Shown here: positions 10,169 to 48,264 of the stretch, piece by piece
Layout: each line of letters starts with the position of its first letter
How positions within the stretch are numbered: position 1 is the stretch's first letter
Virus record (IMG/VR): IMGVR_UViG_3300037423_001433
Span: 18,879 to 82,878 of that record
From: a virus
Taxonomy: Duplodnaviria > Caudoviricetes
DNA length: 64,000 bases
Strand: one strand, 5' to 3'
Notes under the pieces: model-generated
The model's input: only the letters and a program-made list of their open reading frames with translations
Database searches by the model: none
What the model was told of the DNA's origin: nothing
Made by a program: the position numbers and the translations under genes

Positions 10169-12458
10169 ATTGATATTGTAAATGTCTAGGTACGGTTAAT
10201 TTAATCAACTTATTTAAACGCTCATCCAATTCTTGAATTGCTTTTACTAAAACAGGAATTAAACGTCCATAAGATGCTTCCAGCTTTTCAGGATTCTCTT
10301 CATACACAAGTTGCAGAATTTCTTCGCATTTCAAATCTTCTTGTGCAGCCTTCAATTCTTGAGCAATAAAACCGCTATCCTTAATTCCAATCTTTGCTTT
10401 ATCGCGAGTATTCCATGTGAATGACACTGGATTAATCTTACGAAGTAAATTAAGTCCTACTTCTAATGGCTTGATATCTGTTTTATCACGTGCATCAGAC
10501 AAAGAAGTAATGGAAGTTACTTGGCAGCGCAGAGTTGTGATTGAACTATTACCTAAAGTAATTTCATTATTCACAGAGACAGATGATGCTTGAGCTGCAT
10601 ATCCAATTACTGTGTTGTTCGTCCCAGTTGTAATGTTGCTGCCAGCACCGTGCCCCAATCCTGTGTTATTTGAACCTGTCGCAGCAATAAGGGACTGATC
10701 ACCAAAGGCAGCATTATTAGAGCCTGTGGAAACTGTATACAACGCTTGATATCCAACTGCAGTGTTAAAACTGCCTGTAGTATTTGAAATCAAGGCTGCA
10801 TTTCCAACTGCTGTGTTTGGAGTCCCAGTGGTGTTTCCCACTAACGCTTGATATCCAACTGCAGTGTTATTGCTTGCCGTACTAGCTTGAAGTGCATTAT
10901 GACCAATAGCAACATTGGATGATCCAGCAGTATTTGCAGATAATGCTGAACCACCAATTCCAATATTATATCCACCGTTTACATTAGCAACTAACGCAGA
11001 ATCCCCAAAAGCACAATTACTTGGGCCGGTAGTATTATTATGAAGTGCTGATGTGCCGAATGCGTTATTTGAGCCTCCAGTTGTATTTGAGACTAACGCT
11101 GAAGCACCAAATGCATTATTATCATTTCCAGTAGTATTAGCAGTAAGAGCACTTGAACCAAACGCACAGTTTGGAGTCCCAGTTGTATTAGCTTGAAGCG
11201 CATAAGACCCAAAAGCTGTATTATTACTTACAGTATTGTTCTGAAGTGCAGCATAACCAAAAGCAGAGTTACTACCGCCAGTTGTATTTACATTTAATGT
11301 AATATAACCAAAAGCAGAGTTACTACCACCAGTTGTATTTGACGCCAATGCAAGAGAACCAAAAGCAGAATTATAAGATGTTGTGTTTGAATTAAGTGCA
11401 GAATAACCAACAGCTGTATTATGTACACCAGATACATTATTTGACAGCGTATAGGTGCCAAAACCAGTGTTACTACTTCCTGTTGTGTTAGTTACTAGTG
11501 AGCTGTAACCAAAGGCTGCATTATAATTACCCGTTGTGTTGTCATTCAAAGCAAAGTTTCCAACTGCTGCACAAGCGACACCAGTTGTATTTGATGCAAG
11601 AGCGCCATCCCCTGCACCGAAATTACTTGTAACTGCTCCACCGCCATAACTGCCTGCATATACTCTTGCTCCATTAAGAGATAATTTAGGAGAACTTAGT
11701 GTCATTACTGTGATACCACCTAACTGCCAATAATGCGCTATTGATCCGCCAGTTCCTCCAGCGTTATAATAAGTTCCGCCTACGCCATCTTGATTTAACT
11801 GAAACACAGTGGCTGCAGTTCTTTGAACATACAGCGCAGCACCACCAGTCCCAGAAGAATCAATTTCAGAACTATAAGTAGAGCCTATGTATGATCCTAC
11901 AGAGAACGATCCACCAGAGGAAATAATTGTGCTCATCTGAATGGATAGTTTATTAGGAACTGAACCTGTTCCCGCACCACCGGGGCCAATATAAAAATTG
12001 GTTGCACTATTCCAACCTAAACCAATCCAACCTACATTAGTGCCAGCTGCATTGTTTACGTTGTATAATCTGATAGCATCATTCGTTTGCAATGTTCCTG
12101 ACGGCATAATTGCAATACCATTTGGAGCAACAAAACGAATAGAACCTGTTGCAAATCTTCCTGTGTCAGCAGTCGCTGTAACAAATGAACCAAATAAATT
12201 ACCAGAAGCTGTAAATGTCCCTGTTACAGCCATGGCCCCTGTTAAGTTGAAAGAAGATAGTGCATCAACCCAACTTGTCCCATTAAATCTTTCAAACTTA
12301 CCTGATGCACTATTCAGCCGTTGAGAATTAGTAGGAAGATTAGTAGGAGTAGAATACGCTGGATCGAGCATTGTTGCCAAATCCAAATCTCTGCTGCTTA
12401 TTTGTGGTAGCAAGGTAGCGTATGCTGTCCCTGTTGAAAGAGCTGTAAAATCTGCCAT
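10155..12458 (-). CDS. tail fibre with 16-17-aa repeats and C-terminal intramolecular chaperone (peptidase S74-like)
   Basis: about 19 NTTGxxNxAxGxxAL repeats; LSDARDKTDI...SGFIAQE...YGRLIPVLVKAIQEL. Confidence 0.85.
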   Translation of the reverse strand: MADFTALSTGTAYATLLPQISSRDLDLATMLDPAYSTPTNLPTNSQRLNSASGKFERFNGTSWVDALSSFNLTGAMAVTGTFTASGNLFGSFVTATADTGRFATGSIRFVAPNGIAIMPSGTLQTNDAIRLYNVNNAAGTNVGWIGLGWNSATNFYIGPGGAGTGSVPNKLSIQMSTIISSGGSFSVGSYIGSTYSSEIDSSGTGGAALYVQRTAATVFQLNQDGVGGTYYNAGGTGGSIAHYWQLGGITVMTLSSPKLSLNGARVYAGSYGGGAVTSNFGAGDGALASNTTGVACAAVGNFALNDNTTGNYNAAFGYSSLVTNTTGSSNTGFGTYTLSNNVSGVHNTAVGYSALNSNTTSYNSAFGSLALASNTTGGSNSAFGYITLNVNTTGGSNSAFGYAALQNNTVSNNTAFGSYALQANTTGTPNCAFGSSALTANTTGNDNNAFGASALVSNTTGGSNNAFGTSALHNNTTGPSNCAFGDSALVANVNGGYNIGIGGSALSANTAGSSNVAIGHNALQASTASNNTAVGYQALVGNTTGTPNTAVGNAALISNTTGSFNTAVGYQALYTVSTGSNNAAFGDQSLIAATGSNNTGLGHGAGSNITTGTNNTVIGYAAQASSVSVNNEITLGNSSITTLRCQVTSITSLSDARDKTDIKPLEVGLNLLRKINPVSFTWNTRDKAKIGIKDSGFIAQELKAAQEDLKCEEILQLVYEENPEKLEASYGRLIPVLVKAIQELDERLNKLIKLTVPRHLQYQYDLD

Positions 12459-15400
12459 TAATGACCTCTAGCTGTCCATGAAACAGTGCCACTGAGCCTT
12501 GTTCCAGTGTTATCGAATAAAAGAACTTTAAAACTTGTTGGATTAGGTATGCTTGTGAAATTTACTACACAATAAGCAGCGCTTGTTCCCATTGGAGTAA
12601 CATTAATGCTTGTTACATCTAAAAATGCTATATTAAATGTTGCAGTAGTTCCTCCAGAATCTGTTGAAACAACATTCAACACTCCAGCATCATTTACAAG
12701 TTTAGAATCAACCCGAACATTCAATGAAGTCAATTTATACAAATCTGTTGCACCTCCAGATACAGCAATTCTTATTTTGATGTATCTAAAACCAGTCGCA
12801 TAGATTTCTGTGACCCCACTATAACTCGTATATGTAATATTGTCTGCGGAAGTAGAAAGAGTGGTCGTAATTGTTGGAGAACCTGCAATCACGCTTCCAA
12901 GATAGGACATCGTTATTTTGTTTGATCCTAATGTAACGCCCAAATCAAATACTTCTTCGTAATAACCCGGAGAATCTGCAGGTTCAATATAAATTGGATA
13001 ACCTGCGTTAATTTGGTCTTGAACGTCAGTCCACGATCTTGTAGAAAAATGTTGTGCCCAAGTTTCTGTCGTATTAACTGGCATAATTACCCCGCCAGTT
13101 TCTACAAACGCATTTGATATCGTACCCGTGAATGTAGAGTCAATACTACTTCTAAATACATAATCAGGAGGTTGATTCACATTTACAGCAATTCCTACAG
13201 GAGTGCCGTAATTGCCTGCTGAATCAATACCGGTGATCCAGTATGTAAATAATCCTGCGACAGTTTCAAAGACGGTCGTAAACAGCCCTTGCTTAGTTCC
13301 TATCAAAGTCGAAGAAGCATATGTAGAACCTTTTCTTACCTCATAAGATAAAATAGGTAAAGTCGCTGTTGCATCCGTCCAATACAACAAAACATTATTA
13401 TCAATTGTTTGTGATGTAATTGTCACTGCATGCGGTATACTGACAACTACTGTCACGCTTCCTGTTACCGCTCCAACATTTCCTGCGACATCAACAGCAG
13501 CAATCCAGTAGGTTTTTGATCCACTAAAATTTACTTTTTCTGTGTATGATGTAGTATATAAAGAAGTAATTGGTGTGCCTGCTGCCCAAGATGAACCATA
13601 TCTAATTTCGTAATGATCAATTGCAAAAGCGCCTGTAACTTGTGACCAATTAATAACTACATTTTGGCCTGAAATAGATGCTGTTGGACTTGTTGCAGAA
13701 GGAACTGCTACAATAACAGTAGTATCAGCTTCGTTAGTAGAATAATTTCCGCTTGTATCGATTGCTTTAATTCTGTAAGGAATATTTCCAGACGTAGTAG
13801 GTTTTGTAAAATAATGAGTAGAATTTGTTTTAGCAACGAGTGTCGCACTATTCCAATCAGTTCCACCTACCCTGATTTCATACTCTTTTAAATCCACATC
13901 TGTGTTGGCATTCCATGTTAAAGTGATGCCAAAATTTTCCAATGAATAAGTAAATCCTGTTACATCCTTTGGAGGTTGAGTTTTGCCAATTACTGTATAT
14001 GCTGGAGAGTTAAACCAAGCAGATTTGGCATTTACAGGAGTATTAACCGCGCGAATCCTCACAATATATTGCTGACCATCTTGTACAGGAGACAGATATG
14101 CCGCTGTTGAATCTCCTGTAACAGTTGTTGAGTGCCATGTTGTTGTTCCCAATTGAATCCATTGCAATTCAATATCTCCTCCTGCTACAACGTTCAAAGA
14201 TGTAGATTGAGGCCAAGTAGCTAAAATCCTAGACACAACAGTACCATCTGGCATCAACAACAAAACGTCAGTACCAGAAGAGAGAGTCAAAGAGCTGATT
14301 GCAGGAATCGAATAAGGATTTTCTACATCGTTAATTGTTAATGGAGCAGCTGAAACAGCATCTGCAAAATCCCAAATAGTTGGGTCATCTTCTTTTATAG
14401 TAAGTTCAACCAAACCCGATGGAGAAAATTTCTTATCCGTTACACGGAATATCTTATCATTAAATCCAAAAAAAGAACTTGTAAATGTGACTCTATCGCT
14501 AACTTTTAAAGGCCACGTTTTTAAACTAAATTCTGCATTTACTGTATAAGAGTTTCTTTGATCTTCTGTAAAAATACGAGATAAGTTATGAATTCGCTGA
14601 ACGGAGTCAGTGAATGGAAAATCTATGTTTGTCCATTTTTCTAATCCATCTGCTGTAACATATGTACTATTTTGATACGGTGTAAAATCAGTTAGTGCGT
14701 AATCATTCTCTGGGCCTATATATTGTCCTTTTACTCCGTTGTAAAGCTGCGTGTCAGAGATTGATGGTGTTATACCCACTTTACCTACAATATCACTTTG
14801 ATCAAGCGGCATAACAGGCGCAATATACTTGCCTGCTGCAATACTCCAAGTTGTAGAAACAATACTTCCAGCCATTGATTGTGCTATATGCTCTAGCGTG
14901 CCTTCTTGAGCCATATCCGCAGTAATCGTTCCATTAAATGTATAACGTTTACCTAAATCAACTGGAATAGATGAATCGTCCGCATTAGTTTCATCACAAA
15001 TATTAGCAGCAGCAATATAATCTGCTAAAGGAATGTCACTAGGATCAACACCGCACATCTCGCTTGTAAGATAATCATACGCGACAAGAGCGTTATTATC
15101 ACTCCAAGCCGTAGTTCCTGTACGAACATCTAATATCTTCTTACCCTTAACAACAGCCTGAATCGAGGGAATACCTGCCTGAAATTCTGACTGAGATAAA
15201 TGTAATTGCACAACTAGGTAACAAAAACCATCTAAAGTTGCTGTTGAAGGCCAGAGAGTTGGATTAAGCGCATGCAAGACAGGATCAACTGGATCACCAG
15301 CAGTTCCCATATGAGGCCAAATATGTACAGTAGGAATATCGCCGGGACTTGTGTAGTAAATAAAATCTCCGGGACTAATTGAGCCTGTCACAAGTGCACC

Positions 15401-16033
15401 CGCTTCATAGAGATCGGTTGATCCCGGAACAAGAGTACCAGTTACAGTTATACCAATCGGGGAGTCAGTTTCTCCCCCTTGTAGTCCAACAGCCCATACC
15501 GTACCAACATAAGATTGTTTACTTAATGTCATTGAGCCATTAGTAGAAGGGGACTCAATAGACATTCCTAAATTTCTTGGATAAAAATAAGATTCAGGAG
15601 GACAAGCACCTGTCAATGGATCACGGTTAGCCCATCCAAATGGATGTCCTGCGATATAAACTTCTTCTATGCTTTCGCACTCATGCGCGGCTAATACACA
15701 AACTAAATATTTACTTGTACCAGCCGTGTCACCATTAATAATTGCCACAATAGAAGAGCCAACAATTGTTTCCCCATAGATGTATACATACGGGGATTCT
15801 CCGCTGACTGCTGTAATGGTTCTGTCATGTAACCCATTTATCCATTGTTGATAGGCGTCTTTTTCGGCTTTGCGTTGTTGCATAGAGCCATAAATAGCCA
15901 TGCCAATAACCAAAATTAAGGCATAATATGTCTCAACAAAAACGATAATTGCCGCTATTACTGGGGCAGCAAGAGCTAAAGAAGGAGTAATTAAGAGGGT
16001 AATGATAAGGCTGATAAATGTGACCAAGCGCAT
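12458..16033 (-). CDS. central tail tip / host-specificity protein (J-like) with FN3-type domains
   Basis: 1191 aa; YIYGETIVG, SDNNAL..YDYL, YTFNG motifs; Ig/FN3-like YEIRVG repeats. Confidence 0.85.
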   Translation of the reverse strand: MRLVTFISLIITLLITPSLALAAPVIAAIIVFVETYYALILVIGMAIYGSMQQRKAEKDAYQQWINGLHDRTITAVSGESPYVYIYGETIVGSSIVAIINGDTAGTSKYLVCVLAAHECESIEEVYIAGHPFGWANRDPLTGACPPESYFYPRNLGMSIESPSTNGSMTLSKQSYVGTVWAVGLQGGETDSPIGITVTGTLVPGSTDLYEAGALVTGSISPGDFIYYTSPGDIPTVHIWPHMGTAGDPVDPVLHALNPTLWPSTATLDGFCYLVVQLHLSQSEFQAGIPSIQAVVKGKKILDVRTGTTAWSDNNALVAYDYLTSEMCGVDPSDIPLADYIAAANICDETNADDSSIPVDLGKRYTFNGTITADMAQEGTLEHIAQSMAGSIVSTTWSIAAGKYIAPVMPLDQSDIVGKVGITPSISDTQLYNGVKGQYIGPENDYALTDFTPYQNSTYVTADGLEKWTNIDFPFTDSVQRIHNLSRIFTEDQRNSYTVNAEFSLKTWPLKVSDRVTFTSSFFGFNDKIFRVTDKKFSPSGLVELTIKEDDPTIWDFADAVSAAPLTINDVENPYSIPAISSLTLSSGTDVLLLMPDGTVVSRILATWPQSTSLNVVAGGDIELQWIQLGTTTWHSTTVTGDSTAAYLSPVQDGQQYIVRIRAVNTPVNAKSAWFNSPAYTVIGKTQPPKDVTGFTYSLENFGITLTWNANTDVDLKEYEIRVGGTDWNSATLVAKTNSTHYFTKPTTSGNIPYRIKAIDTSGNYSTNEADTTVIVAVPSATSPTASISGQNVVINWSQVTGAFAIDHYEIRYGSSWAAGTPITSLYTTSYTEKVNFSGSKTYWIAAVDVAGNVGAVTGSVTVVVSIPHAVTITSQTIDNNVLLYWTDATATLPILSYEVRKGSTYASSTLIGTKQGLFTTVFETVAGLFTYWITGIDSAGNYGTPVGIAVNVNQPPDYVFRSSIDSTFTGTISNAFVETGGVIMPVNTTETWAQHFSTRSWTDVQDQINAGYPIYIEPADSPGYYEEVFDLGVTLGSNKITMSYLGSVIAGSPTITTTLSTSADNITYTSYSGVTEIYATGFRYIKIRIAVSGGATDLYKLTSLNVRVDSKLVNDAGVLNVVSTDSGGTTATFNIAFLDVTSINVTPMGTSAAYCVVNFTSIPNPTSFKVLLFDNTGTRLSGTVSWTARGH

Positions 16034-22745: not shown

Positions 22746-23147
22746 TTATGAGTCGTAACGATATTTAACCGTAATAGGGACGTATCTACGACCTGAATTA
22801 TCTACTATTGCGCGTCCTGAATTTGGAGTTTGTTCTACGCTCACGGGAGAGTCTTTAGGAACAACAGGGTACAAAGCAATAATGTTTTGAACTAGATCAT
22901 CAACTTGCTTCGAGCCAGAACCATCAATAACCACTACATTTATTTGAAACAATCCAATTTGTCTTGTTCTGATACCACCTAAATTAGGATTTAAAGTTTT
23001 TGAGTTCATCAGAAAACATTCTAAATAAGGTGCATCATCAGGTTTTGTAAATGGAACTCCTTCAAAAGAAACAGCAATTGGAGGATTTTGTGCATCAGCG
23101 AAGTTTTTTAGTTTCGTTTCAAAATAACTTCTAATAATATTAGCCAT
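22746..23147 (-). CDS. tail terminator protein
   Basis: ATG at 23147 overlapping upstream stop; GLFQINV motif; synteny. Confidence 0.65.
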   Translation of the reverse strand: MANIIRSYFETKLKNFADAQNPPIAVSFEGVPFTKPDDAPYLECFLMNSKTLNPNLGGIRTRQIGLFQINVVVIDGSGSKQVDDLVQNIIALYPVVPKDSPVSVEQTPNSGRAIVDNSGRRYVPITVKYRYDS

Positions 23148-23580
23148 TACTTGTAGCCCTTTGTATTGATAAAAACACCATTCGATAAGGGCCAATCGCG
23201 CCTGTGTATCCGTCTTCTTTTCTCCATCCAATAGTCTCAGCAAGTTGAGCATATGGCACATTGTTTGTCAGAGTTAAAGAGCCGTCTTTACCCAAGAATT
23301 CTGTTGTTCCTTGGAGTTCATTCACACGCTCTATGCTTGCTGCACCTGTTGGGCTTGTGTCATCTGTCAATTCAGATGAAAAATCATTTCCAATGCTCGG
23401 ATACCATTGATTAGATAGTAAGCCTTTAGCAAAGTTAGGATGATTTACGTTAAAAGTAGGGGAAGGGGTAGATTCAACAATATCAGTAAAAAGATTCACT
23501 GCTGTGGTTGTAACTTGGGTATTGACATCTTCTAATATTTTCTGTATATTATTTTTTATACTGTCTGAAAATGTGCCCAT
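23140..23580 (-). CDS. neck/tail-completion protein (HK97 gp10-like)
   Basis: LTNNVPYA..LE motif; synteny. Confidence 0.65.
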   Translation of the reverse strand: MGTFSDSIKNNIQKILEDVNTQVTTTAVNLFTDIVESTPSPTFNVNHPNFAKGLLSNQWYPSIGNDFSSELTDDTSPTGAASIERVNELQGTTEFLGKDGSLTLTNNVPYAQLAETIGWRKEDGYTGAIGPYRMVFLSIQRATSNG

Positions 23581-23597
23581 GAATTTTCTACTCTTTA

Positions 23598-23626
23598 ATT
23601 ATAACACGAAAGTATCTATTTGTCAA
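23598..23626 (-). promoter_or_regulatory. consensus sigma70-type promoter
   Basis: TTGACA-17-TATAAT on minus strand. Confidence 0.75.
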
Positions 23627-23633
23627 GTTATTT

Positions 23634-24032
23634 TTAACTTTGAGGTGGAGTTGGATTTTTAGATGACAAATATGTTTTTGCCAAATCAATCAGTTTATCC
23701 ACTGTTTTAGTCCCTGCCCAAACAAGCTGAAAAGAAATGTTCCAATAGAACAACTCTCTTAGTACTTTGACAAGACCATCCACATTATCTGTAGTACGAA
23801 TTCCGTTCATTAACACATAGACCAGCGCCCACGCACTAAAAACAAGAGAAATAGGGATTGCTGCACGAAGCCAGCTAACTTTGCCAGCATCATCCCTGAA
23901 TGCATCTCCCCAATCGAAGTTAGCATCTTTTTGCTTAGAAAACATTGCCCAGAAGATACCAAGCAACAAAACAGCTAAAAGGAGTGCAGGAAAATCGATT
24001 TGAGAACAAATTTTTGTAATTGTGTCTAACAT
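23634..24032 (-). CDS. membrane protein, holin-like
   Basis: AAGGA RBS at 24032 start; 2-3 hydrophobic segments. Confidence 0.5.
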   Translation of the reverse strand: MLDTITKICSQIDFPALLLAVLLLGIFWAMFSKQKDANFDWGDAFRDDAGKVSWLRAAIPISLVFSAWALVYVLMNGIRTTDNVDGLVKVLRELFYWNISFQLVWAGTKTVDKLIDLAKTYLSSKNPTPPQS

Positions 24033-24040
24033 ATTATTCC

Positions 24041-26218
24041 TTAGTATGGACTTGTATTTCCTAAATATTCCCAAATATATTTAGTCAGGCTCTTACCGCT
24101 TGCACAGAAACCTGATGTGTTGTGTCCACGGGTATAGATTGTGCATGAAGTGTTGTTTGCAGCTTCACATGTACCTGCCGTTGAAGTATCTGGGCCTTGG
24201 CATAGATCATCTTTAATAACAGCTTCATTAGGGAAAGGCCATAATGTAGTTCCTGTCAAACTCCCATTCACATATTTATTAACTATAGTAGCACCAATAT
24301 TTCCGCTTGGATTTCCTGTATTATATGCAGGCCCAGAAGTGATATCCGGTATCCATACAAAAGCAGGATCAGCATTGGTTGCATTTGGCATTACTGTATG
24401 AAGTGTGTTATTGCAATTCCACCATAAATTTGCAGCTGTAGTAGGTGTGCCAGCGTACTGTTGGTTATAACATCCTGCAGATGTGTAACTACCCCCATCC
24501 ACAAGCATATTTTTCATAGTGACGGAATTATATGAATAAGAATCTAAACGCACTCCGTTACCATTTGAGCCATACACAGTGTTGTGATTTAATATAATAT
24601 CGTGTGCGCTTCCTCTTGTGCTCGCTGTAGTATCAGCAGAAATCCACAAGCCACCCGCAGTACTTGAGTTAGAAACACCTATAACAGCATTATCATACGC
24701 TGTGAAAGTAGGTATAGTAGTACCAGTTATGTCACTATACATTGAAGAGTGGGAGTCATAATAAAAACCGCCATTTCCACTTGTTGCTACTGTATTGATT
24801 GCAATATTGCCATACCAACTAACTGTGCCAAGACCATATGGATAAGTGCTGTTTGTTACAGATGAAGTCGTAAATAACGGAGCATGCACATCTGCTGTAC
24901 TGTCTGTTCCATTATCAAAATCTAATACAATACTGTTTTCTACAATAGAGTGATCTTCATCATATTGAACAATACCAGCTTTAGGTTGACCATCGGGAGC
25001 ACCATCATAACGAGAGACACTTTCACGTACAATATTATTTACGCCACTATATAAAGCAAATGGATAACGTGCACCATAACCCCATGACCAGTCCCGTTCA
25101 AATACACAGCCATTGCAACGATTAGAGCCTGCCCCAAATATGTTAGCTCCGCTCGAACCCGGCAACGAGTATCCTGCACCTGTGTCATGGATATAAATAT
25201 TACTTGCACGAATATCTGCACTTGCTAATGTAGTACCTTGTGTGCAACCGCTTCCACCATTAGTGACTGTTGCAGTGCTAAGTGCTCCGCCACTTGTTGT
25301 AGTAATTGTATATTGTGCTCCAGTAATTCCACCACCCCAAATAGCTCCTAACCAAGAACTATTAGCTGAAAAACCACTACCTGCTTGTGCTATTGAAATA
25401 CTACCAACTGCACCTCCAGAACAAGTCACTGTTAATGCTGAACCTGTACCATTTGAGCTTCCATCAATATCAATTGGGCCTGAAGCAGAATGAATTGCTC
25501 TTAAATAACCAATTTCAATATTGCTACTACGCCAGATATAAATTGGAAGTTTAGTATATTGACCATCTATTGTGGCTGATGCAGTACCACTTGCACAACT
25601 TGGGGAACATAATGATCTTGTCCATCCAAAAAATCGAGTTGATTTTACTGATGTGCCTGAGACAAGATTGGTAGAGAATGATCCACCATTACCACCTAGT
25701 GATTGTCCTGCATAAGTGCCATCATCAAAATATAGCGTATCCCCCGCAGACATCAATGGTAAAACATGATTTAATGTCGCAAATGGGCTTGTCCTGCTTC
25801 GTCCCGTGTTTGAATCACTGCCACCGGGAGAAATCCACCATACATCAGAATCTTTTGGTGTGAATGTCGCCGCAGCATCTGTTGCTCCAGAAAATGTAAA
25901 TGAACAATTACTTGCTGTTGAAGTACCTGTACACTTTGTTCCACCCCAATTATAAAGCTCACTTCCTGTGCCATGCACCGTGCTACTGGCATTTGATGAT
26001 GCAGCTGTTGCTGTCAATGTTACAGTAGCCCCATTACTAAATGATGCAGAGCATGTGCCGGGGCATGAAATACCTGCAGGACTAGATGTAATAGTTCCGT
26101 TCCCATTAACAGTAACTGTCAATTGAGGAGCCGCAGGATTTATTAACCAAGGCATTACTAATGCTGATGTTATTGAGTAATAAAACATCAACAAGAAAGT
26201 GAGAATTATTTTTTTCAT
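24041..26218 (-). CDS. signal-peptide protein with Ig-like repeat and right-handed beta-helix (lyase-like) body
   Basis: MKKIILTFLLMFYYSITSA signal; WWISPGGSDSNTG...PFATL...GDTLYFDDGTY beta-helix start; 16 Cys. Confidence 0.6.
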   Translation of the reverse strand: MKKIILTFLLMFYYSITSALVMPWLINPAAPQLTVTVNGNGTITSSPAGISCPGTCSASFSNGATVTLTATAASSNASSTVHGTGSELYNWGGTKCTGTSTASNCSFTFSGATDAAATFTPKDSDVWWISPGGSDSNTGRSRTSPFATLNHVLPLMSAGDTLYFDDGTYAGQSLGGNGGSFSTNLVSGTSVKSTRFFGWTRSLCSPSCASGTASATIDGQYTKLPIYIWRSSNIEIGYLRAIHSASGPIDIDGSSNGTGSALTVTCSGGAVGSISIAQAGSGFSANSSWLGAIWGGGITGAQYTITTTSGGALSTATVTNGGSGCTQGTTLASADIRASNIYIHDTGAGYSLPGSSGANIFGAGSNRCNGCVFERDWSWGYGARYPFALYSGVNNIVRESVSRYDGAPDGQPKAGIVQYDEDHSIVENSIVLDFDNGTDSTADVHAPLFTTSSVTNSTYPYGLGTVSWYGNIAINTVATSGNGGFYYDSHSSMYSDITGTTIPTFTAYDNAVIGVSNSSTAGGLWISADTTASTRGSAHDIILNHNTVYGSNGNGVRLDSYSYNSVTMKNMLVDGGSYTSAGCYNQQYAGTPTTAANLWWNCNNTLHTVMPNATNADPAFVWIPDITSGPAYNTGNPSGNIGATIVNKYVNGSLTGTTLWPFPNEAVIKDDLCQGPDTSTAGTCEAANNTSCTIYTRGHNTSGFCASGKSLTKYIWEYLGNTSPY

Positions 26219-26219
26219 T

Positions 26220-27020
26220 CTAATTAATTAGCCATATGCCGGGAACATAAGTTCCACCGCCGCCTCCACCACCGGCAGCACCTTTAATAACTACTGCTTC
26301 AACAACCGTGTGTTTTGATGTTGAATTTGTGATAGACGGCCAGCCTGCAGTAACACCACTCGAAGTTGCAGCCATCTGTTGACTAGCACTTGCAATTTGT
26401 GTAAAGCCTGTTTCATTATTGTTTGAAACACTTGCAGTAAATCCTGTTTGTGGTGTTCCAGCCGTAACTACAGATTGTGCACTTGAATCAAAATACTGAA
26501 TCACGCAATCTGTTGCGACTGATGTAGCAGCTGTAGTAATTGTATTGGTTGTTCCTGTTTGATCACCCGCAGCTGGAGGTGTGCCATCAAATATTGTTGT
26601 TCCATCCCAATTAGCAGCCGCTATGTGATGATAAGCAATAACTACCGTGGTTCCAACACCATTTTTATTAACTGTAAGGGTTAGAGTTCCTGCAGCAGCA
26701 CCAGTAGTAATTTTTGAAGTATAAATAGCCAGCCCATGTGACGAAGTTGTGTAATAATCAACTTGTCTGGTATAAGTATTTCCTGCAGAATCCGTAATTC
26801 CACTGATTGCAGCAGGATCAGTATTAAAATTGGCCAAACCAACAACAATCAAATCTCCAGCATTAACTGCATTTGTCAGAGGAGTCGTGCTAAAATTCGT
26901 CGTATTATCAGCTGCACCGGGGTCTGTTGCTGACCCCGTATTCGCGAATGTACATCCAGCAGCGTAGGAATTTACTATAAAAACAAATAGCAACAATAAT
27001 GATAAAAGAATTTTTTTCAT
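26220..27020 (-). CDS. signal-peptide, Thr-rich beta-sandwich protein
   Basis: MKKILLSLLLLFVFIVNSYAAGC; TAATG overlap with upstream gene; Gly linker + YVPGIWLIN C-terminus. Confidence 0.55.
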   Translation of the reverse strand: MKKILLSLLLLFVFIVNSYAAGCTFANTGSATDPGAADNTTNFSTTPLTNAVNAGDLIVVGLANFNTDPAAISGITDSAGNTYTRQVDYYTTSSHGLAIYTSKITTGAAAGTLTLTVNKNGVGTTVVIAYHHIAAANWDGTTIFDGTPPAAGDQTGTTNTITTAATSVATDCVIQYFDSSAQSVVTAGTPQTGFTASVSNNNETGFTQIASASQQMAATSSGVTAGWPSITNSTSKHTVVEAVVIKGAAGGGGGGGTYVPGIWLIN

Positions 27021-28732
27021 TATCTTGCAACCCTCCAATTGAGTGTAACTGCACCCGGTGTAATGGAGGAACTAGTCATATTGCAAACTTTAAAATTAAC
27101 ATTTCCAGCAGTAGGATACGCTATAATTGTTAATGTTCCACTTGTGGACGGTGTATAACCTGTAATAGCAGTTGGATCGCCGTTAAAACCAGCTCGTACC
27201 ACATCCGTTGTTGCAACACCTGTAGCAGCAACAGTAACGACAGTTGCGCATGTACCTGAGGAAATTGCACTTGTTCCCAATGCAGCAGTTCCGCTTGCTA
27301 CCGTGTATGCCAAGGTTGCAGTCGCAACAGGTAATGTCAGAGTGTTAGAACCAAGTGCACCTGTTGGAGGAGAAATCGTAATAGAACCAGACGTAGCATT
27401 GTTATAAACAACTCCGCCTGCACTTGTTCCAGATACACCTAGCGTAATTTTACTTGTGCCATCAGTCGTAATGCCTGCTACAACTTTTGTATCAGTTGTT
27501 CCTGCACCTAGCACGACAGAGTTTGCAGTCAAACTACCACCTGAAGCTGTTACAGTGCCAGAGCCACCGGGTGTTGCACAAGAACCATCACCACGCAAAT
27601 ATGTAGATGCGCTGCAAGTACCAGACCACAAGCCATAAATGTCAGAAGAAGTATAACTATGCCATTCCAAGCCAGTAGCGCCAGAATTCACACGCAATTG
27701 TTGCAAACCTGTACCAACTGCCAAAGAGGATAAAGCTGTAGGACTTGTAAAATATGGCAGAGATAAATTAGCAGGCGTGCCAGTTACATTCGCCATGGTT
27801 CCACCAGAACCAAAGTTTACTGTGGAACCATCAGTGCCTGTAAATGTCAAAGTATTGCTTGCTGTAAGCGTTTTACCATCAGCAACAGTTAATGTAGAGC
27901 CTGTTGCAGGTGCTGTGATCGTAACTTTGTTTACCGTTGTTGCTGTAGCAGCACCAATATTTGGAGTTGTCAAAGTCGGGCTTGTTGCAAGAACAATTCC
28001 ACCAGAGCCTGTCGTCCCATTAGACATATCCGAAGCAGTAAGTTGGCCTACAGTAAAAGCCGCACCTGTGCTTGTTTGTTTTACTACTTGGGATGTTCCA
28101 CCTGTAGCACTGAAATCTGTTGTGCCAGCTGGCAAAGTAATTACACTCCCTGTGCCAGCTGTAGCTGCTGGTTTAACTTGCAATGTGCCTGAAGTAGAGC
28201 CGCTAAAAGTTAAACTCAAACCTGTTGCTGCGCCGATATTAGGAGTAGATAAAGTCGGACTTATAGCCAAGACTACGGAGCCACTTCCAGTTGTACCATT
28301 TGTCAAATCTGATGCAGCTAATGTCTGGCTTGCGCCTAATGCAACAGAATGACCTGCAATAGTAACTGAAGAATTTACCAAGTCTGTGTTTGCAACACTA
28401 GCGCATGATGCTGTACCCGACGCATTTAAACTACGTGGGAATTGATTTGTACATGATGTACCCGCATAAGCCCCTAATGCTCCTGCACCATTGTTTGTTT
28501 GCAAGTTACCGGAAACACCTGAAGGAGAAGAACCGCCTCCTGCTGGAGTCGCCCATGTGCCATCTCCACGCCAAAATGTAGTAGATGATGCACTTGTTCC
28601 ACTGTTCAAATGAGAGACATCCAAGTTACCTTGAACTTGGTTTGCCAAATTTATCTTTGTTTGAGCAAAAACTGAGGATGCACTTATTGCAAGTGACATC
28701 AAAAAAAATTTAATACCTGTACCAAGCCGCAT
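27020..28732 (-). CDS. signal-peptide fibre-like protein
   Basis: GGAG RBS at 28732; MRLGTGIKFFLMSLAISASSVFA signal; internal repeats NGTTGSGxxVLAxSPTLxTPNIGAAT and RGDGxxATP. Confidence 0.6.
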   Translation of the reverse strand: MRLGTGIKFFLMSLAISASSVFAQTKINLANQVQGNLDVSHLNSGTSASSTTFWRGDGTWATPAGGGSSPSGVSGNLQTNNGAGALGAYAGTSCTNQFPRSLNASGTASCASVANTDLVNSSVTIAGHSVALGASQTLAASDLTNGTTGSGSVVLAISPTLSTPNIGAATGLSLTFSGSTSGTLQVKPAATAGTGSVITLPAGTTDFSATGGTSQVVKQTSTGAAFTVGQLTASDMSNGTTGSGGIVLATSPTLTTPNIGAATATTVNKVTITAPATGSTLTVADGKTLTASNTLTFTGTDGSTVNFGSGGTMANVTGTPANLSLPYFTSPTALSSLAVGTGLQQLRVNSGATGLEWHSYTSSDIYGLWSGTCSASTYLRGDGSCATPGGSGTVTASGGSLTANSVVLGAGTTDTKVVAGITTDGTSKITLGVSGTSAGGVVYNNATSGSITISPPTGALGSNTLTLPVATATLAYTVASGTAALGTSAISSGTCATVVTVAATGVATTDVVRAGFNGDPTAITGYTPSTSGTLTIIAYPTAGNVNFKVCNMTSSSITPGAVTLNWRVAR

Positions 28733-28973
28733 GTGTATCTCCGGTTGCCATTGCAACTGTGTAAGTAATAGTATTGCCACTCAATGTGTAATCAACTCCA
28801 CCATTTTTCATAACAACGCCATTGCGCATCAGAACTAAAGAAGCGGGAGGATTCGGTGAATGACCGAGCGTAAAAGTTGAACCGGGAATTGCACCAGATG
28901 GCGTCTCTGAATCTGTAAAATTAGGAACAGTTCCGCCACCGCTGCCTGTAGAGGATGATGGGCTAATAGGCAT
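28710..28973 (-). CDS. small structural-type beta protein
   Basis: ETPSG...FTL...NGV...DYTLSGNTIT pattern seen in phage fibre modules. Confidence 0.5.
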   Translation of the reverse strand: MPISPSSSTGSGGGTVPNFTDSETPSGAIPGSTFTLGHSPNPPASLVLMRNGVVMKNGGVDYTLSGNTITYTVAMATGDTHAAWYRY

Positions 28974-29257
28974 TATGCCTCCTGTACTAAAATTCGTGTG
29001 CCTGCTGCTGCGTCACAATACACCCAAAGACCACTCTCCCCAGCGGATATATTTGCAAAACTCCCTACACTACCAGCATAAAGTGGTGCGCCAATCTGTG
29101 TATCTGTATCTGGAGAAGTCGCTTTAATACATAACAGGCAAGCATTGCTACCTTTATTATAAACATTAACTGCTGTACCAACAACGATCCCTGTTGCCGC
29201 GTATAAATCCGTCCAAGTTTGTGATGCAATCAATACATCGTCTCTTGTATTTGCCAT
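28973..29257 (-). CDS. hypothetical structural protein
   Basis: 94-aa ORF after stopper, AAGGA RBS. Confidence 0.5.
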   Translation of the reverse strand: MANTRDDVLIASQTWTDLYAATGIVVGTAVNVYNKGSNACLLCIKATSPDTDTQIGAPLYAGSVGSFANISAGESGLWVYCDAAAGTRILVQEA

Positions 29258-29270
29258 TACATTTCCTTAA

Positions 29271-45960: not shown

Positions 45961-46605
45961 TCAAGCAGCAATCTTATATTGCTCTTGTCTCAAGTTCCAT
46001 TCCTTTCTATAATCTTCCATCTTTCCTTTCCACCTAGAAATATTAGCAGATAATGTATTCCTTGGAATTCCATATTTCTTGCTCACATAAGAAATATTAT
46101 CTCCTGCTTCAAAATCTTCTAATGCTGCTTCAAGTTTCTCTGGTGCAATAGCTAATGGCTTTCCCAGCCTTGTTCCTTGTGCTCTTGTTCTTGCTATTCC
46201 AGCTTTCGTCCTCTCCCTAATTGTATTTCTTTCCATTTCCGCTATCGCTGCGGCCATTGTCACCATCACTTTCCCCATTATTGATGTGACATCCATTCCG
46301 TCAAATTGCATCACAATAAGCTTAATTCCTAAAGCTTTGAATTTATTAATTGTATGCAATACATCTTCTGCATCCCTTCCAAGCCTGTCTATCATCGTTA
46401 CAATAATCCGATCCCCCTCTTTCGCTTGCTGCATCATCTTTGCAAACTCTGGACGTTCTGTAGCTTTGATAGAGCCTGACACGCCTTGCTCTGAAAACCA
46501 ATGCTCTGTAGGAATACTATATCCTGCATCAATAATCATCTTGCGTTGGTTCTCTGTGGTTTGTAAGTCTGTGCTTACGCGCATGTATGCAAATGTCTTA
46601 CTCAT
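45961..46605 (-). CDS. small serine recombinase (resolvase/invertase) with C-terminal HTH
   Basis: AYMRVST, ERPEF, DRLGR, ERTKAG motifs. Confidence 0.92.
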   Translation of the reverse strand: MSKTFAYMRVSTDLQTTENQRKMIIDAGYSIPTEHWFSEQGVSGSIKATERPEFAKMMQQAKEGDRIIVTMIDRLGRDAEDVLHTINKFKALGIKLIVMQFDGMDVTSIMGKVMVTMAAAIAEMERNTIRERTKAGIARTRAQGTRLGKPLAIAPEKLEAALEDFEAGDNISYVSKKYGIPRNTLSANISRWKGKMEDYRKEWNLRQEQYKIAA

Positions 46606-47607: not shown

Positions 47608-47847
47608 TCAAGCCTTTTTGGATTTCTTGATTTTAGCCACTGGGATAGCTTTAGAAGTGGTGCCCTTGCGTTGTGTTGACTTGATACTGTGAAGAGCATG
47701 CGAATGAATGACGCCTGTGGATGAGCCTTTGTAATGACTTGAAGAGCTAAATGAATGAAAGCCAAAAGAATGCCCCATGCCACGAGCGTTAGAGTTATTT
47801 GAAACAATCAACGCGGATACTACAATGATAATTGCAAGAGATTTCAT
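47608..47847 (-). CDS. small signal-peptide, His/Ser/Lys-rich protein
   Basis: MKSLAIIIVVSALIVSNNSNA; AAAGGA RBS. Confidence 0.5.
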   Translation of the reverse strand: MKSLAIIIVVSALIVSNNSNARGMGHSFGFHSFSSSSHYKGSSTGVIHSHALHSIKSTQRKGTTSKAIPVAKIKKSKKA

Positions 47848-47895
47848 AATAATTTCCTTTAAGAAAGAGTGGAATCTAAGGCATTAAAATAAATT

Positions 47896-48264
47896 TCAGA
47901 AACTAAATTTTAACCCAATTTTCTTGTTTTTGATAATTGTTTGTAGCTCTGCTGCAACAATTCCTACTGTCCATGCTGTACGCCATTCTGGAGATAAATT
48001 TTGCATAACAAGATGATTGCCTACTCCAATTGTTGCAAAGTAAGCAATAATCTTGCCATCGCTGGGATGAGAACCTAAAATTCTATTTCTCTCATAAATT
48101 CCGTCATGGTGTTTGATGTCCATCGTCTGACAGAAATCTAGGGTCAGAGTGGTGTCAATTAATGCTTCCTCACCAGAATAATGATAATTATTTTCTTGTG
48201 CATGAGAAACATTTACTGAAAGTGACAAGCAAGCTATAATAATTGCTTTTTTGAAATTTTTCAT
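47896..48264 (-). CDS. exported protein with C-terminal Phe
   Basis: signal MKNFKKAIIIACLSLSVNVSHA; ends GLKFSF; GAGGAG RBS. Confidence 0.55.
   Translation of the reverse strand: MKNFKKAIIIACLSLSVNVSHAQENNYHYSGEEALIDTTLTLDFCQTMDIKHHDGIYERNRILGSHPSDGKIIAYFATIGVGNHLVMQNLSPEWRTAWTVGIVAAELQTIIKNKKIGLKFSF

Follow-up and report, generated by a model that had tools for sequence, protein, structure and literature searches.

In the textbook view, the assembly of tailed phages takes place wholly in the cytoplasm. Fibre genes that are variably present among head- and tail-completion genes are known from the collar-whisker and neck passage structure of the lactococcal 936 group and from T4 fibritin; these appendages carry no export signal and are assembled in the cytoplasm, unlike the gene products of the cassette described here. 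Phage-encoded proteins that are exported via Sec and act in the envelope are also known, such as T5 Llp, Cor and T4 RI, the last of which reportedly has a cleavable signal peptide. These are small single-domain proteins, mostly with early or lysis-control roles, and differ in this from fibres or enzymes encoded in a virion operon. Tail-fibre-like trimers that have an N-terminal signal peptide and act outside the cytoplasm have been described as MAT fibres of Bdellovibrio bacteriovorus (PMC10769870). They are cellular proteins on the surface of the predator, with a beta-rich domain, conserved and ~130 aa long, following the leader and, in many of them, a C-terminal S74 chaperone-protease (PMC10769870).

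In the cultured Cellulophaga phage phi19:1 (NC_021799), all four of gp101 to gp104 start with Sec-type leaders of the classical kind. Among them are a "pectate lyase" (777 aa) and a "tail fiber protein," and GenBank gives all four as virion proteins by MS/MS, a detection that could also reflect co-purifying material. Like the cassette examined in this study, this cluster is a run of late, leader-bearing genes flanked by small membrane proteins. It differs in that its leader-bearing proteins have no sequence homology to those described below, in its position after the tail genes and not in a neck slot, in its Bacteroidota host and in its low Cys counts (2, 2, 0 and 11). The first-pass annotation of our locus knew of no characterised example of such a module, which has to be softened, as a precedent, so far unremarked, exists in the phi19:1 record. 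To our knowledge, nobody has described its export route as a mechanism.

The locus is contained in a window of 64,000 nucleotides from the complete 83-kb record of an uncultured tailed phage, which has repeats at its termini and encodes replication functions and tRNAs of its own; among the phage ORFs read, none was seen to encode a tyrosine integrase. All genes concerned lie on the minus strand. A slot of 5.7 kb is bordered upstream by the head-closure gene Hc1 (29271-29666; phrog_161, E 1.3e-10), conserved in 28 related phages, and downstream by the Neck1/tail-completion gene (23140-23580; phrog_169, E 2.2e-11), likewise conserved in relatives and followed by the tail terminator gene (PF13554). 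The slot encodes, in this order, products of 94, 87, 570, 266, 725 and approximately 132 to 146 aa: the small, leaderless p94 (28973-29257; phrog_4770, E 1.7e-20), p87 (28710-28973), a leaderless, Cys-free small beta domain, the fibre-type protein p570 (27020-28732), the beta-sandwich protein p266 (26220-27020), p725 (24041-26218), and a small membrane protein with two to three hydrophobic helices as the last gene of the cassette (23634-24074, or 132 aa when started from the ATG at 24032). The reading frames of p94 and p87 overlap by 1 nt, those of p87 and p570 by 23 nt, with GGAG 6 nt 5' of the p570 ATG, and those of p570 and p266 by 1 nt, while p266 and p725 are separated by a 1-nt spacer. 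The location of the three large genes between head-closure and Neck1 genes and their translational coupling, as initially proposed, were thus confirmed.

Each of the three large proteins had also been credited with a basic-hydrophobic signal peptide. We called leaders by direct reading and with our own rule-based script, taking as signs of Sec/SPI processing a basic n-region, an uninterrupted hydrophobic h-region ~8 to 15 residues long, and positions -3 and -1 occupied by small neutral residues. By both approaches, Sec-type leaders with n-, h- and c-regions were found in p570 (residues 1-23, nt 28732-28664; MRLGTGIKFFLMSLAISASSVFA↓QT), p266 (residues 1-20; MKKILLSLLLLFVFIVNSYA↓AGC) and p725 (residues 1-19; MKKIILTFLLMFYYSITSA↓LV), with h-regions of 11 to 14 residues and small residues at -3 and -1 in all three. 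A permissive rule marked 12 of the 139 ORFs genome-wide as signal-like and also picked up obvious non-signals, e.g., the N terminus of a P-loop kinase. Three signal-like ORFs in succession are unlikely to occur by chance, yet this alone is no proof, and the weight for export lies in the comparative evidence and not in the run of leaders itself.

The Cys counts reported before, 6 in p570, 2 in p266 and 16 in p725, were reproduced, and Cys density amounts to 1.6% in the island versus 0.67% in other late proteins. Within the p570 family, the median Cys number is 7 among leader-bearing members (n = 51; even in 43, odd in 8 and zero in none) and 2 among leaderless members (n = 65; even in 17, odd in 36 and zero in 12), and the difference in Cys number is pronounced (Mann-Whitney p = 1.6e-11). 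Leaderless family members begin otherwise, with MANS... or MAI.... All relatives of p725 at 36 to 65% identity carry an SPI or lipobox leader, and the leader sequences are unrelated, which suggests that leader function is conserved and sequence is not. The full-length proteins of the p725 family in which a leader was called (n = 6, window protein included) have 10 to 16 mature Cys, in all cases an even number. The closest relative of p266, P0242, retains the leader and both cysteines. Furthermore, the phage encodes an Rz-like spanin, and the host is therefore a diderm. The retained leaders of p725 relatives, the correlation of Cys content with the leader in the p570 family and the features kept by P0242 support the earlier proposal of export and oxidative folding: judged from these sequence comparisons, it is highly likely that p570, p266 and p725 are exported via Sec to the periplasm of a Gram-negative host, that their leaders are removed and that their Cys pairs are oxidised. 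Since all three carry export signals and paired cysteines, their folding very probably does not take place in the cytoplasm, the compartment in which the particle is built.

In the largest protein, p725, an InlB-B-repeat-like domain is combined with a right-handed beta-helix. Its cysteines form local pairs (52/56, 96/105, 204/208, 266/325, 368/371, 583/602, 673/684 and 692/705), and four of them, C583, C602, C673 and C705, do not vary across the family. Foldseek searches returned tailspike depolymerases, K1 capsule lyase, PL9 lyase, RbmB and GH110/136 at probabilities of 0.9 to 1.0, with TM scores that are low (0.17 to 0.32) because the model is mediocre (pLDDT 63). The N-terminal cap region alone matched the PL9 lyase 5olq (E 1.2e-3), and together these matches substantiate the lyase-like beta-helix noticed at first reading. 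The InlB-like repeat claimed alongside it is supported by way of homologues, as hundreds of proteins that align to approximately residues 33-120 of p725 at 40 to 50% identity carry PF18998, but not by direct assignment, Pfam having yielded no match on p725 itself at E < 0.1. The carbohydrate-active fold is shared with the phage depolymerases LKA1 gp49, KP34p57 and K1 lyase 7w1c and with the bacterial matrix lyases PL9 (5olq) and RbmB (9ozl). Known phage depolymerases, however, are cytoplasmic and have a particle-binding N-terminal domain, whereas p725 has a Sec leader, the InlB-B-repeat-like domain and 16 Cys. We take p725 to be an exported beta-helix carbohydrate enzyme, putatively a polysaccharide lyase or hydrolase. 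Its closest relatives are cellular secreted enzymes or lipoproteins of bacteria, and no p570 or p266 relatives were found in the genomes that encode them. A homologue in Rhodocyclaceae is located within an EPS biosynthesis cluster that includes Wzy, a flippase, glycosyltransferases and a deacetylase. These cellular relatives would fit an enzyme acting on the cell envelope, and p725 is a candidate exopolysaccharide depolymerase.

Residues 250-430 of p570 matched phrog_6002 ("virion structural protein," E 1.3e-11), and the shaft repeat is common to virion structural proteins of cyanomyoviruses, in agreement with the phage-fibre-type repeats first reported. For the GSGx insert noted in the island and taken to be typical of phage structural proteins, there is a weak PHROG match (phrog_460, E 5e-4). 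Pfam searches of p570 (E up to 0.1) matched no family, S74-type included, where an absent match is no exclusion; like the MAT fibres, p570 has a leader, whereas the MAT-type S74 and beta-rich domains were not found in it by Pfam. The N terminus of mature p570 corresponds to a motif that sits internally in leaderless fibres, and the mature protein is therefore without their N-terminal anchor; no recognised anchor domain was found in mature p570. The neighboring p87 showed weak matches to phrog_18673 and the tail fibre family phrog_2710 and shares 46% identity with the last 70 aa, at the C terminus, of a fibre-type protein of 756 aa (in L020). Domains of the p87 kind occur within fibre proteins or at their ends. 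Homologues of p94 in relatives are located outside the slot, in one case (L097) as the N-terminal domain of a 357-aa protein, and the CxxC motif of p94 is not conserved.

The beta-sandwich protein p266, for which the AF2 model has a pLDDT of 87, contains Cys23 and Cys172 as well as a poly-Gly stretch, after which comes a short C-terminal tail. A structure search with this model matched nothing in the PDB convincingly, the best hit (Z 6.1) being a generic one of jelly-roll/CBM-like type. Genes of the p266 family directly follow p570-family fibre genes in two other phages (L072 and L011), where both members of the pair are leaderless. The first-pass annotation had suggested that p266 might be a lipoprotein. 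Using the lipobox definition [LVI][ASTVI][GAS]C with Cys at +1, the corresponding region reads A-A-G-C in p266 and G-A-G-C in P0242, so that position -3 is Ala or Gly and not L, V or I. In addition, SPI sites (SYA↓A in p266 and AHG↓A in P0242) lie two residues upstream of the lipobox-like Cys, which after cleavage would be at +3 and is conserved, as is its partner Cys172. Lipidation of p266 is therefore unlikely.

Within the late operon, the slot between Hc1 and Neck1 holds an accessory cassette that is optional. The two border genes adjoin without a cassette in 18 of 28 related phages, and the other 10 hold different cassettes, nearly all leaderless, with genes assigned to PHROG "virion structural protein" or "head protein" or resembling tail-fibre or beta-helix genes. 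The cassette genes lie on the strand of the structural genes, are coupled or overlapping, and have a GC3 of 0.22 to 0.24, equal to that of the tail genes. The sole strong promoter match, a TG-extended sigma-70-type TTGACA-17-TATAAT on the minus strand (23598-23626) that agrees at 12 of 12 consensus positions but is a consensus match only, is located 3' of the cassette and ahead of Neck1, and no flanking promoter-terminator pair was found around the cassette. The small membrane protein gave no PHROG match; in the Atlas, it fell among clusters of viral membrane proteins, and DUF2644 emerged as a weak lead.

We propose that the cassette would encode a glycan-targeting set, composed of the trimeric-fibre-type p570, its beta-sandwich partner p266 and the polysaccharide-degrading beta-helix protein p725. 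The three proteins would cross via Sec into the Gram-negative periplasm, where their leaders would be cut off and their Cys pairs oxidised, and would wait there until the holin opens the inner membrane. Shortly before and just after breakage of the envelope, they would meet finished particles and bind at the neck region, possibly via the leaderless p94 or p87, to act on the particle as disulfide-hardened adhesin/depolymerase whiskers that penetrate exopolysaccharide. Docking on virions at lysis is our leading reading, which we infer and hold tentatively. It is plausible because of the fibre families involved, the "virion structural" genes in the same slot of relatives and the leader-bearing proteins detected by MS/MS in phi19:1. 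Against docking, as far as sequences tell, stand the missing anchor of mature p570 and the cellular enzymes to which p725 is related. Because a complete tail tip and tail fibre, both without leaders, are present in the phage anyway, the three proteins would be dispensable for adsorption. More generally, tailed phages of diderms might use a second, periplasmic assembly compartment, in which outer appendages such as fibres, lectin-like modules and depolymerases would be Sec-exported and oxidised by the Dsb system of the host and then added, at the holin breach, to particles built in the cytoplasm, with fibre families in leaderless, Cys-poor and in leader-bearing, Cys-paired editions; this generalisation is possible, if rather doubtful.

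It appears somewhat unlikely that the three proteins are exported and never reach the particle, but bind or degrade exopolysaccharide, capsule or O-antigen of the host late in infection, which would ease release, destroy or mask receptors and spare progeny the debris and infected cells. The cellular relatives of p725 with leader or lipobox, one of them in an EPS cluster, speak for such a role, as do the RbmB-type matrix lyases among its fold matches, the phage's own full set of leaderless tail tip and fibre, and the absence of the cassette from 18 of 28 relatives, which makes it dispensable; moreover, receptor masking by exported phage proteins is known from T5 Llp and Cor. However, a long shaft-repeat fibre suits reach from a particle and not periplasmic enzymology, and p570 and p266 belong to phage structural-module families that form leaderless adjacent pairs in other phages. 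Expression is also tied to the late structural operon and not to early genes, and the leader-bearing analogues of phi19:1 were present in virion preparations. That the leaders stay uncleaved, as signal-anchors that keep fibre and enzyme parked on the inner membrane, at its periplasmic side, up to lysis and then give free soluble factors, a means of storage or timing like that of SAR endolysins, is improbable. The h-regions are long (11 to 14 residues), a small multi-pass membrane protein ends the cassette and the phi19:1 cluster is likewise flanked by such proteins, but all three proteins have good -3/-1 cleavage sites, the relatives of p725 interchange SPI and lipoprotein leaders, which points to ordinary cleavage, and the conserved +3 Cys of p266 is predicted to pair with Cys172.

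We consider it very improbable that the leaders are false positives and that p570, p266 and p725 are ordinary cytoplasmic neck or side fibres. Although the calls were made by our own rule, which also flags the kinase N terminus, leader function is kept among p725 relatives without sequence conservation, leader presence is strongly linked to Cys number and parity, and leaderless family members start quite differently. Least credible is a moron, i.e., a foreign block with its own promoter, that would serve lysogenic conversion through prophage-expressed surface adhesins. The slot is indeed a hot spot for variable cargo, and cellular leader-bearing fibre proteins exist in the form of the Bdellovibrio MAT fibres (PMC10769870). 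The marks of a moron, its own promoter and terminator and a deviant composition, were nevertheless not found around the cassette, whose starts are coupled to one another and to structural genes and which does not differ from other late genes in GC3. That the record is complete, has terminal repeats and carries replication genes as well as tRNAs, with no tyrosine integrase seen in the ORFs read, also argues against lysogenic conversion.

If outer parts of the particle mature in the periplasm, as docking at lysis implies, host Sec and Dsb would become phage host factors and lysis timing would be a part of morphogenesis. Disulfide-hardened fibres would then help to explain the durability of phages in the environment, and pipelines that equate a signal peptide with "not structural" would be wrong for many receptor-binding proteins and depolymerases. 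If the three proteins are never on the particle, they would represent large exported phage proteins that bind or degrade glycans late in the lytic cycle, a barely described form of host-surface remodelling. Gene clusters that combine a leader-bearing fibre with a lectin or pectate-lyase-like gene recur in unrelated viral contigs.

Between the genes for head closure protein Hc1 (29271-29666) and Neck1 (23140-23580), the minus strand carries an island with three consecutive genes, p570 (28732-27020), p266 (27020-26220) and p725 (26218-24041), whose products each open with a candidate leader. The gene coordinates, coupling and N termini that the first-pass annotation had given for the island were borne out on re-reading, as were its counts of 6, 2 and 16 cysteines; those of p725 lie in local pairs, and four of them are invariant across its family. 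An ATG at 28732, with GGAG 6 nt upstream, starts p570 and renders a longer GTG ORF unnecessary. The leaders read MRLGTGIK-FFLMSLAISASSVFA in p570 (predicted cleavage before QT), MKK-ILLSLLLLFVFIVNSYA in p266 (before AGC) and MKK-IILTFLLMFYYSITSA in p725 (before LV). Cysteines make up 1.6% of the residues of these three proteins, against 0.67% for the remaining 26 late proteins. Leaders were called by a permissive rule of our own that flags 12 of 139 genome ORFs, some wrongly, and three leader-like ORFs in a row are suggestive, not decisive. At 28700-28735 (minus), an A3T8 run falls exactly where p87, an upstream island gene, stops (TAA) and p570 begins, and it could influence coupling. A p87-p570 frameshift fusion was rejected, as no convincing slippery site precedes the p87 TAA despite this run.

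Family comparison was more informative on export. Eight close relatives of p725 were retrieved (36 to 65% identity). All those with a complete N terminus have a leader (SPI type in homologs P0006 to P0008, lipobox type in P0004 and P0009), and one is also present in P0002, whose N terminus is apparently truncated; these leaders are mutually unrelated in sequence. Mature cysteines number 10 to 16, an even count in 6/6 full-length proteins with rule-called leaders, window protein included. For p570, 116 full-length homologs were divided by our rule into 51 with and 65 without a leader. The former have a median of 7 cysteines (43 even counts, 8 odd and none at zero; binomial P = 7e-7 for the parity bias), whereas the latter have a median of 2 (17 even, 36 odd and 12 at zero; Mann-Whitney P = 1.6e-11 between the groups). 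As judged from sequence, this is the pattern expected of leader-bearing proteins folding in an oxidising compartment. The suggestion that p266 might be a lipoprotein seems unlikely to hold: in its sole close relative, P0242 (54%), AGC likewise comes directly after a leader and the second cysteine is retained, which is more in line with SPI cleavage and a single conserved disulfide. Taken together, export and oxidative folding of p570, p266 and p725 are very probable.

No island protein had a Pfam match. In p725, an Ig-like region may correspond to the InlB-like repeat of the first-pass annotation; its homologs carry the divergent InlB B-repeat PF18998, but Pfam on p725 itself is empty. The lyase-like beta-helix was confirmed as a right-handed beta-helix following this region, by fold matches and by a cap motif matching that of the PL9 rhamnogalacturonan lyase 5olq. 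The AF2 model (pLDDT 63) retrieved tailspike depolymerases, a K1 capsule lyase, PL9, PL6, RbmB and GH110/GH136 in Foldseek, with probabilities up to 1.0 and low TM scores. The fibre-type repeats of p570 proved to be shaft repeats of PHROG 6002, common to cyanomyovirus virion proteins. Its mature N terminus opens at an NLxSGTxASSTTFWRGDGTWATP module that is internal in leaderless fibres, so the leader stands in for the usual N-terminal part. Bradyrhizobium phage ppBjS10J-1 was dismissed as a related case, since the common FWRGDGTW-type motif is internal there in a leaderless fibre; p570 is also not paralogous to the 767-aa tail fibre that this phage encodes.

The p266 protein is confidently modelled as a beta-sandwich (pLDDT 87). 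Foldseek against the PDB returned nothing at E<=0.001, and VIA-align gave a cupin as its best match (Z 6.1) along with many generic jelly-roll/CBM rows at Z of ~4. The family is small and mostly leaderless, with a few leader-bearing members, and most members read end in a poly-Gly stretch and a short tail; scans of viral contigs and of metagenome contigs gave no matches. A weak member beside a leaderless fibre (viral contig L011, 11099-11821) starts MSNALLLRRRAIIAGAAAANPP, resembling a Tat (twin-arginine) leader. Of the small island proteins, p87 resembles the C-terminal domain of fibre or head-fibre-type proteins and p94 belongs to PHROG 4770; p94 was discarded as a redox partner because relatives do not retain its CxxC motif.

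The genomic relatives of p725 are cellular genes. One from a Burkholderiaceae MAG (63% identity) sits among housekeeping genes, one from a Rhodocyclaceae MAG (45%) lies inside an exopolysaccharide cluster (GT4s, Wzy, flippase, deacetylase, acyltransferases), and a third is from a Polyangia MAG. These MAGs contain no relatives of p570 or p266. The p725 family is rare, with a full-length match in 1 of 201 sampled Burkholderiaceae genomes, namely the MAG itself, and no relatives were found in cultured phages. Since GC3 of the island (0.22 to 0.24) equals that of the tail genes, the island is not a recent import.

Furthermore, we compared the Hc1-Neck1 junction among 38 related phages fetched via the capsid protein, 28 of which have both genes. 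The two genes abut in 18/28 (gap of -35 to 203 bp), and the other 10 hold ten different cassettes of 0.35 to 5.4 kb (loci L088 to L119, against 23580-29271 in the window). Among these cassettes are some whose first gene matches PHROG "virion structural protein" or "head protein"; other cargo comprises tail-fibre-like proteins, a beta-helix-like N terminus, an SGNH-like protein and a homing endonuclease (GIY-YIG-like, 239 aa, in L109). Almost all are leaderless, with one leader-bearing protein of 391 aa in L108. With the slot empty in most relatives and variously filled in the rest, the junction is a hypervariable slot for optional, mostly structural-type cargo in this lineage, and the core particle can do without the island.

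Whether the exported proteins join the virion is a separate matter. Docking is our leading reading, held tentatively and by analogy. Canonical holins make very large inner-membrane lesions; once these form, finished particles would meet the periplasmic proteins at high local concentration, both before outer-membrane failure and just after it. In favour of docking, the families concerned are those of fibres, genes of the p570 and p266 families adjoin in leaderless form in two contigs (L072, L011), and leader-bearing fibres have leader-bearing LamG/pectate-lyase-like neighbours in unrelated viral contigs, including L059, L018, L013, L015, L007 and L019. In the cultured Cellulophaga phage phi19:1 (NC_021799, 16871-24231), four consecutive proteins, gp101 to gp104, each begin with a classical leader and are listed in GenBank as virion proteins from MS/MS (including "pectate lyase" and "tail fiber protein"); they have small membrane proteins on either side (gp100, gp105 to gp107), and only gp104 is Cys-rich (11 Cys). 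However, gp101 to gp104 are not homologous to the island proteins, and their detection by MS/MS may reflect co-purification.

The main rival, that the exported set acts on the envelope, is in our view somewhat less likely. Against docking, p725 is descended from cellular envelope enzymes, mature p570 has no recognised anchor, and the phage's own adsorption apparatus is complete and leaderless. For joint switching of leaders between fibres and p266-type partners, clean leaderless pairs were found only in L072 and L012, with L011 ambiguous, which is too small a number to carry weight. The window contributes the hot-spot setting of the cassette, an origin of the enzyme in EPS-linked cellular genes, the division of the p570 and p266 families each into leader-bearing and leaderless forms, and first-hand confirmation of the phi19:1 precedent.

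The locus in L059 (4429-12179) runs adaptor, Hc1, Neck1, tail terminator, a leaderless 92-aa gene and three leader-bearing genes, which encode a 1374-aa fibre (20 mature Cys), a 265-aa LamG lectin and a 247-aa protein; downstream of this trio there is no major tail gene. The 92-aa gene was rejected as a split fibre anchor, its BLAST similarity to leaderless fibre N termini being nil.

The complete record (82,878 bp, direct terminal repeats), of which the window is part, has a lambda/HK97-style late operon on the minus strand (~7 to 37 kb of the window). Terminase, portal, protease, scaffold, a 233-aa protein, major capsid protein, a 147-aa protein and Hc1 precede the island. It is followed by Neck1, tail terminator, major tail protein, chaperones, tape measure, Dit, two tail-tip proteins, a J-like central fibre (1191 aa), a 767-aa tail fibre or spike, a 201-aa tail protein, and lysis genes for a small holin-like protein, an endolysin and an Rz-like spanin, the last implying a diderm host. 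Two TG-extended sigma-70 promoter matches (12/12, minus), upstream of the 223-aa gene after terminase (35713-35741) and between cassette and Neck1 (23598-23626), suggest host-polymerase-driven units inside the late region. The J-like ORF (12458-16033, minus) overlaps the K-like gene upstream by 43 nt, and its first ~45 residues are very hydrophobic (MRLVTFISLIITLLITPSLALAAPVIAAIIVFVETYYALILVIGM), which may mean that a gpI-like membrane segment has been fused on or that the start is mis-set. Four tRNA genes (Asn, Pro, Trp, Thr) cluster at 37431-37774, just upstream of terminase. No tyrosine integrase was seen among the ORFs read; a resolvase/invertase-type serine recombinase N terminus (214 aa, MSKTFAYMRVSTDLQ...) is encoded at 45961-46605 (minus). 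Plausible leaders also occur on small early-region proteins (176 aa, 221 aa and Gly/Ser-rich, 79 aa, 122 aa), encoded upstream of the window (window coordinates -17095 to -15603) and at 47608-48264 within it.
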